A DNA stretch of 64,000 bases from Escherichia phage vB_EcoM-CHD94UKE2. The first letter of the stretch is position 1. The number at the start of each line of letters is the position of its first letter. Shown in pieces: positions 42,500 through 43,184 of this stretch. The position numbers and the translations under genes are program-made. The stretch lies in sequence record MZ234031.1; one strand, 5' to 3'. The notes beneath the pieces were generated by a model. That model did not search any database and had not been told where the DNA came from. It saw only the letters and a list, made by a program, of their open reading frames with translations.

Positions 42500-42729
42500 T
42501 GTCTGAACAAACTATTGAACAAAAACTGTCTGCTGAAATCGTAACTCTGAAATCTCGTATTCTTGATACGCAGGACCAAGCGGCTCGTCTGATGGAAGAA
42601 TCCAAAATTCTGCAAGGAACTTTGGCTGAAATTGCTCATGCAGTAGGTATCACTGGCGATACTATTAAAGTTGAAGAAATCGTTGAAGCTGTCAAGAATC
42701 TTACTGCTGAATCTGCAGATGAAGAATGA
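42499..42729 (+). CDS. 57A: tail fiber assembly chaperone gp57A
   Basis: 76 aa coiled-coil; TAATG overlap with gene 1. Confidence 0.85.
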
Positions 42730-43184
42730 TGGAATTTAAAGACTTTTCAACGGGTCTTTATGTAGCAGCTAAGTTTTCAGAATTAACACTTGACGCGCTG
42801 GAAGAACTCCAGCGCTCTTTACGTGTTCCTAATCCAGTTCCTAGAGAAAAAATTCATTCGACTATATGTTATTCAAGAGTAAATGTTCCATATGTTCCAT
42901 CGAGTGGAAGTTTTGAAGTAGCTTCTTCTGGACATTTAGAAGTGTGGAAAACACAAGATGGATCGACTCTTGTACTTGTGCTAGATTCTGAATATCTGCG
43001 CTGTCGACACATGTATGCGCGGGCACTAGGTGCTACACACGATTTTGATGATTACACACCGCATATAACATTGTCTTATAATGTTGGGCCCTTATCATTT
43101 AGCGGTGATGTACAAATTCCGGTTGTACTTGACCGTGAATACAAAGAGCCTCTTAAACTCGATTGGGCAGATGATTTAAAATAA
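42726..43184 (+). CDS. 57B: gp57B; by recollection the T4 57B product is the anti-CBASS nuclease Acb1
   Basis: 152 aa (T4 57B 152 aa), His-rich motifs (HSTICY, HITLSY) consistent with a 2H-type phosphoesterase; synteny after 57A. Confidence 0.75.

Follow-up and report, generated by a model that had tools for sequence, protein, structure and literature searches.

Directly downstream of the tail-fibre chaperone gene 57A, the genome of Escherichia phage vB_EcoM-CHD94UKE2 (MZ234031.1) carries an open reading frame (ORF) for a protein of 152 residues, and it raises two questions: which enzyme it encodes, and whether it stands at the head of a group of counter-defence genes. The window, i.e., the whole stretch of DNA that was analysed (64,000 nucleotides), is byte-identical to positions 103840-167839 of Escherichia phage vB_EcoM-G3F7 (MZ234035.1). 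In that record the ORF (G3F7_234) is annotated as 'hypothetical protein', and the homologue of Acb2 further downstream likewise.

Identity of the gene 57B product

The initial annotation had described a 152-residue ORF after 57A with two His motifs. The ORF, which starts with ATG at 42726, and both motifs (HSTICY and HITLSY) are all present, and the following elements were assigned to it:

42726..43184, plus strand: acb1 (gene 57B) coding sequence, 152 residues plus stop codon (T4 identity, Pfam PF23474, PDB 7T26)
42855..42863, plus strand: first HxT catalytic motif, H44-S45-T46, opening HSTICY (sequence; tetrad of PMC9117128)
43062..43070, plus strand: second HxT catalytic motif, H113-I114-T115, opening HITLSY (sequence; tetrad of PMC9117128)
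43158..43181, plus strand: C-terminal lid, residues 145-152, LDWADDLK (T4-identical residues; lid according to PMC9117128)

The protein contains two H-x-[ST] motifs in all, at H44 and H113. They had been taken for motifs of the 2H phosphoesterase type, and they match the published catalytic tetrad H44/T46/H113/T115 (PMC9117128). T4 gene 57B was found by activity-guided fractionation and its product was named Acb1, a nuclease with 2H phosphoesterase fold which degrades CBASS signals (Hobbs et al., 2022, Nature 605:522; PMC9117128). Direct comparison with T4 (NC_000866) revealed that 152 of 152 residues are identical to gp57B (NP_049750.1), the catalytic His motifs included, which bears out the earlier proposal of a 57B homologue and candidate Acb1. 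The two genes differ in 8 of 459 bases, and all eight differences are synonymous. T4 Acb1 and the protein encoded here agree in sequence, length, tetrad and C-terminal lid, and both phages share the upstream order 2-3-1-57A-57B.

The Pfam profile of the family (PF23474, Acb1) matched with 202.7 bits (cut-off 27, E = 2.7e-60). This alignment is full-length, pairing residues 9-150 with positions 1-144 of the 144-position profile, and together with the HxT/HxT tetrad it places the protein in the family. The best sequence match in the PDB was Acb1 of Erwinia phage FBB1 (E = 4e-62, 68% identity), crystallised in the apo form (7T26) and with 3'3'-cGAMP (7T27). The alignment to 7T26 spans residues 9-149 of the ORF protein (141 residues, one single-residue gap), and the FBB1 protein is a member of the 2H family with equivalent HxT/HxT motifs. 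It comes from a phage of another host genus, about one third of its residues differ, and it is the crystallised orthologue, whereas most of the biochemistry was done on another. By homology to 7T26 and from the T4-identical C-terminus, the ORF protein is predicted to have a 2H phosphoesterase fold and a C-terminal lid (residues 145-152).

Homologues were detected in 554 phage records at the DNA level and in 1,485 at the protein level, 445 of the latter with a homologue of at least 99% protein identity. An alignment of nine homologues, drawn from Tequatrovirus, Mosigvirus, Jiaodavirus, Krischvirus, Lazarusvirus, a Vibrio phage, Pseudotevenvirus and Erwinia phage FBB1, preserves both HxT motifs throughout, with overall identity as low as about 43%. 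A divergent Acb1 of 165 residues (9Q2G/9Q2Y) shows marginal similarity to the ORF protein (E = 0.004, 20 bits) and belongs to a distant branch of the family. Both of its HxT motifs align (HVTVLY and HLTLAY); in the 9Q2Y chain Ala replaces the first His.

The matches in Pfam, the PDB and phage records as well as the synonymous-only differences from T4 show that the ORF is not a chance one. Almost certainly, this Tequatrovirus ORF is acb1 (T4 gene 57B), the product of which destroys the cyclic-nucleotide signals of CBASS; nothing in its sequence counts against this identity. The Acb1 found here is already known in full detail and there is nothing new in the gene itself.

Among the homologues, that of RB43 (locus L010, 2459-3082) is longer, with 207 residues, of which about 55 are extra C-terminal residues after the Acb1 domain; it keeps both HxT motifs. 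The most distant tblastn match, in Pseudomonas phage psageK9, was discarded as an Acb1 candidate, as it lies inside a 600-residue ORF adjoining the terminase. A weak PDB match of the ORF protein to a portal protein mirrors this match.

The conserved block upstream of acb1

On its upstream side acb1 is flanked by genes for a chaperone and a kinase and by a tail gene. The two elements of this side which may bear on its expression are:

42133..42140, plus strand: late-promoter motif TATAAATA inside gene 1, the nearest plus-strand copy upstream of 57A/57B
42499..42729, plus strand: homologue of gene 57A, tail-fibre chaperone, 76 residues (PHROG 1002, 2.4e-27)

The order 2-3-1-57A-57B is collinear with T4 at 97.7% DNA identity, and all eight Straboviridae genomes compared retain the order 3-1-57A-57B. 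Gene 57B is the last gene of this conserved 3-1-57A-57B block. The TGA stop codon of 57A overlaps the ATG of acb1 (ATGA at 42726-42729), and through this overlap the translation of acb1 is probably coupled to that of 57A. The late-promoter motif has 23 matches in the window, compared to 10.5 expected; its copy at 42133 might drive late transcription of 57A-57B.

The 57A protein has 76 residues here and 80 in T4, with two substitutions. Its C-terminus is shorter and acidic (...SADEE, compared to ...SADEAKDEE in T4), and the altered segment immediately precedes the overlap with the acb1 start codon.

Predicted action of Acb1 and alternative functions

The crystal structures of the FBB1 protein showed the 2H phosphoesterase fold and the C-terminal lid, formed by residues 145-152, which become ordered over bound 3'3'-cGAMP (PMC9117128). 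Strain on the ligand sets up attack of the 3'-5' bond by the adenosine 2'-OH, with the scissile phosphate positioned over H44/T46/H113/T115; the reaction is metal-independent and proceeds in two steps (PMC9117128). The exchange H44A inactivates T4 Acb1 and the H44A/H113A protein is catalytically dead (PMC9117128). The activity was seen about 15 min into T4 infection, and a T4 Δacb1 phage grew like the wild type without CBASS and had a more than 300-fold defect with active CBASS (PMC9117128).

Because the protein sequence is identical to that of T4, the catalytic and lid residues are all present here. Cleavage of cyclic oligonucleotides is expected to carry over from the identical T4 protein, and acb1 would be expressed and act in this phage as in T4. 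As a small metal-independent phosphodiesterase of the 2H fold, Acb1 would bind the cyclic di- and trinucleotides of the host CBASS system during infection (3'3'-cGAMP, cUA, cAAA and other AMP-containing signals). The C-terminal lid would shut over the ligand and strain the adenosine, the 2'-OH of which would then attack the 3'-5' phosphodiester. Acid-base catalysis by the H44/T46/H113/T115 tetrad would linearise the signal (e.g., to GpAp). With the signal destroyed the effectors would stay inactive and the phage would escape abortive infection.

The labels given to this gene family suggest another function: the protein could be a LigT-like 2'-5' RNA ligase, or an RNA-repair enzyme of this type, with RNA ends as its substrate, for instance in the repair of tRNAs near the tRNA cluster. 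'RNA ligase' is the name of PHROG 755 and the label of 57B in RefSeq T4 and many other records, and a weak match to Pfam 2_5_RNA_ligase2 (PF13563; E = 0.11, 13 bits) was obtained. The label arose because Acb1 has the 2H fold superfamily and the duplicated H-x-T/S architecture in common with cellular 2H phosphoesterases (LigT-type 2'-5' RNA ligases), and was therefore inherited from the superfamily and not from an assay. LigT-type enzymes act on RNA ends whereas Acb1 acts on a cyclic oligonucleotide immune signal. Moreover, the PF13563 match is below the cut-off of 27 bits and partial (residues 81-123 only), compared to 202.7 bits for Acb1, and the identical T4 protein hydrolyses cyclic oligonucleotides, with a CBASS-specific deletion phenotype (PMC9117128). 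On the sub-threshold LigT-type match and the biochemistry of the identical protein, this very improbable function was rejected. A role of 57B mainly as an accessory of the 57A chaperone in virion assembly, with the nuclease activity as a side property, would agree with the ATGA overlap, the adjacency of 57A and 57B in all eight Straboviridae genomes compared and the late-promoter motif upstream at 42133. However, T4 Δacb1 grows normally without CBASS (PMC9117128), and natural or selected nonsense or point mutants of acb1 are viable (Bas43, Bas35 escapers; PMC13577387). Because deletions and nonsense mutants are viable, 57B has no essential assembly role, and we consider that it hardly deserves credence as a chaperone accessory.

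A third possibility does not compete with the main explanation but broadens it: Acb1 may be a general eraser of adenine-containing cyclic oligonucleotides, which blunts the cA3 signal of type III CRISPR and exposes the phage to Panoptes, a guard system triggered by the loss of a decoy signal. E. coli hosts rarely carry type III CRISPR, which counts against this extension. Acb1 cleaves cAAA, and evasion of type III CRISPR was suggested on this ground as possible, but not demonstrated (PMC9117128). Panoptes systems of type I and type II sense the loss of cA3 and restrict Tevenvirinae-group phages whose acb1 is intact, and the escapers mutate and thereby inactivate acb1 (PMC13577387), which confirms that Acb1 is active in vivo. 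Overall, such a general activity is about as probable as not.

Destruction of CBASS signals by Acb1 is thus retained as the function of the gene, and the labels 'RNA ligase' and 'hypothetical protein' are an annotation lag and not contrary evidence. The value of the present assignment lies in annotation, since many of the 1,485 phage records which hold a homologue have a missing or misleading label. An intact Acb1, together with the Acb2 homologue, predicts escape from CBASS signalling by adenine-containing 3'-5' cyclic oligonucleotides, and intact Acb1 predicts sensitivity to Panoptes-type guard systems. Such host-range predictions from Acb1 and Acb2 would be useful in choosing therapeutic phages.

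The variable slot downstream of acb1

The initial annotation had placed 57B at the head of a compact counter-defence island. In favour of this, two ORFs with capsid-targeting (CTS) leaders lie directly downstream:

43258..43515, plus strand: Ip5-like internal protein, 85 residues (PHROG 3499 internal head protein, 1.2e-49)
43587..43820, plus strand: Ip6-like internal protein, 77 residues (PHROG 8111 internal virion protein, 1.2e-52)

The adjacency of acb1 and ipI in T4 was argued by Hobbs et al. to be island-like (PMC9117128). Each of the T4 proteins Ip1, Ip2 and Ip3 blocks its own GmrSD enzyme, and the ip region was called a hotspot (PMC12373910). The island claim is partly supported in this way, but the conserved linkage of acb1 is upstream, no anti-defence target of Ip5 or Ip6 was found in the literature searched, and other ip genes as well as the Acb2 homologue lie 8-12 kb away:

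51409-51690, plus strand: ORF with capsid-targeting leader, second ip locus around denV
52169-52429, plus strand: ORF with capsid-targeting leader, same locus
52493-53071, plus strand: ORF with capsid-targeting leader, same locus
54700-54966, plus strand: Acb2/Vs.4 homologue, 88 residues (87 of 88 identical to T4 Vs.4)

The order of the second locus is e - ip - denV - ip - ipIII, compared to e - ipIII - ipII - denV in T4, and its ORF at 51409-51690 is a paralogue of the Ip5-like protein beside acb1 (48% identical). The Acb2 homologue, about 12 kb from acb1, matched Pfam Acb2_Tad1_hairpin with 72.7 bits (cut-off 27). Acb2 also neutralises CBASS signals, but its fold and mechanism are unrelated to those of Acb1: it acts by sequestration, as a sponge, and not by hydrolysis. 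CTS cassettes after 57B were found only in Tequatrovirus and Mosigvirus, and in none of the five more distant lineages compared. Neither a concentration of counter-defence genes at this place nor a conserved linkage among them was therefore observed, and acb1 is better described as the last gene of a conserved block which abuts a cassette-swapping slot.

In Escherichia phage MIZ3 (Krischvirus), the variable region downstream of 57B has no CTS cassette and contains, about 700 bp after 57B, a gene annotated Dmd (locus L007, 3689-3892). Dmd (discriminator of mRNA degradation) is a counter-defence protein of the antitoxin type. The slot after 57B may acquire counter-defence genes that vary between lineages.

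The leader of the Ip5-like protein is of the IPI capsid-targeting type (MKTFKEFATKTTITE) and aligns with that of T4 IPI, and the leader of the Ip6-like protein, MKTYQEFIAE, is identical to the T4 IPIII leader. Beyond the leader both are unlike IPI, with 19-29% identity over the whole proteins (29% for the Ip5-like protein). Their names follow the labels of GenBank records, in which the former is called ip5 or ipV (T2, RB51, Yersinia phage PST) and the latter ipVI (Yersinia phage PST). Homology to T4 breaks off at 43292, in the leader-coding part of the Ip5-like ORF, and picks up again at 43841, immediately ahead of trna.4. This interval holds a single cassette, ipI, in T4 and two other cassettes in this phage. 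Neither of the two proteins had a Pfam match. PADLOC, the library of which holds defence and not counter-defence proteins, gave no match for Acb1 or the Ip5-like and Ip6-like proteins; for the vs.3-like ORF at 54966 it gave only a weak Cas11f match at chance level (E = 0.005).

The cassettes are bracketed by repeats:

43197..43236, plus strand: early-promoter-like unit, GTTTACA-N17-TACTAT with TG, overlapping a 13-bp stem-loop (promoter scan)
43169-43250 and 43500-43581, plus strand: repeated unit D1/D2, 82 nt, two copies (direct repeat)
43821-43859, plus strand: third copy of a 39-nt repeat core present in three copies (repeat comparison)

The promoter-like unit, which can also be written GTTTAC-N14-GTGATACTAT and overlaps the strong stem-loop, stands directly after the acb1 stop codon at 43197, with further copies at 43528 and 43821. 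The three copies bracket the ip cassettes, one copy preceding each cassette. The motif occurs eight times in the window, compared to 0.04 expected, and all eight copies are on the plus strand, which indicates a general early-promoter type of this phage that is not special to the slot between acb1 and the ip genes. A stem-loop of up to 13 bp encloses the -10 element of the repeat unit. The folds at 43197, 43528 and 43821 have energies of -17.4, -17.0 and -19.5 kcal/mol (z-scores -3.6, -2.9 and -4.2, respectively). Between repeat copies 1 and 3 two stem pairs differ on both sides with pairing kept (GATGAGGTA/TACCTCATC compared to GATAGGGTA/TACCCTATC). The hairpin is not a canonical terminator because no U-run follows. 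Rfam at the gathering threshold found only tRNAs in 42000-48000, and it assigned no family to the promoter hairpins or to the rnaC/rnaD-like stretch described below.

Copies of one direct repeat cover the end of acb1 (43169-43184; DDLK, stop) and the end of the Ip5-like ORF (43500-43515; EDLK, stop), and so extend into both coding regions, in acb1 as far as the C-terminal lid. We tentatively suggest, with somewhat less than even confidence, that the Ip5-like and Ip6-like proteins are injected inhibitors of GmrSD-type or other defence variants lacking an assigned Ip, which are swapped as promoter-plus-leader modules via the flanking promoter/hairpin repeats of about 40-80 nt and the leader-coding sequence. 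If so, the 3' end of acb1, the last codons of which belong to the repeat, would serve as a fixed anchor on the left of the swap site. In general form this hypothesis was already put forward by Repoila (1994), as cited in PMC12373910. Both proteins are candidates for a GmrSD-inhibitor screen of the kind published in 2025.

Further downstream, eleven tRNA genes were found on the plus strand at 44850-45867 (Gln, Leu, Gly, Pro, Ser, Thr, one with CAU anticodon called Met, Tyr, Asn, His and Arg), compared to eight in T4; the segB homing endonuclease gene, which interrupts the T4 array, is absent here. An ORF of 116 residues (45886-46236, PHROG 3355) separates tRNA-Arg from a stretch at 46236-46570 which shares 90.6% identity with rnaD and rnaC, two small stable RNAs of T4. 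Over this stretch the vB_EcoM-G3F7 record has two 'hypothetical protein' genes on the minus strand (46233-46346 and 46351-46455), and these coding calls are probably spurious.
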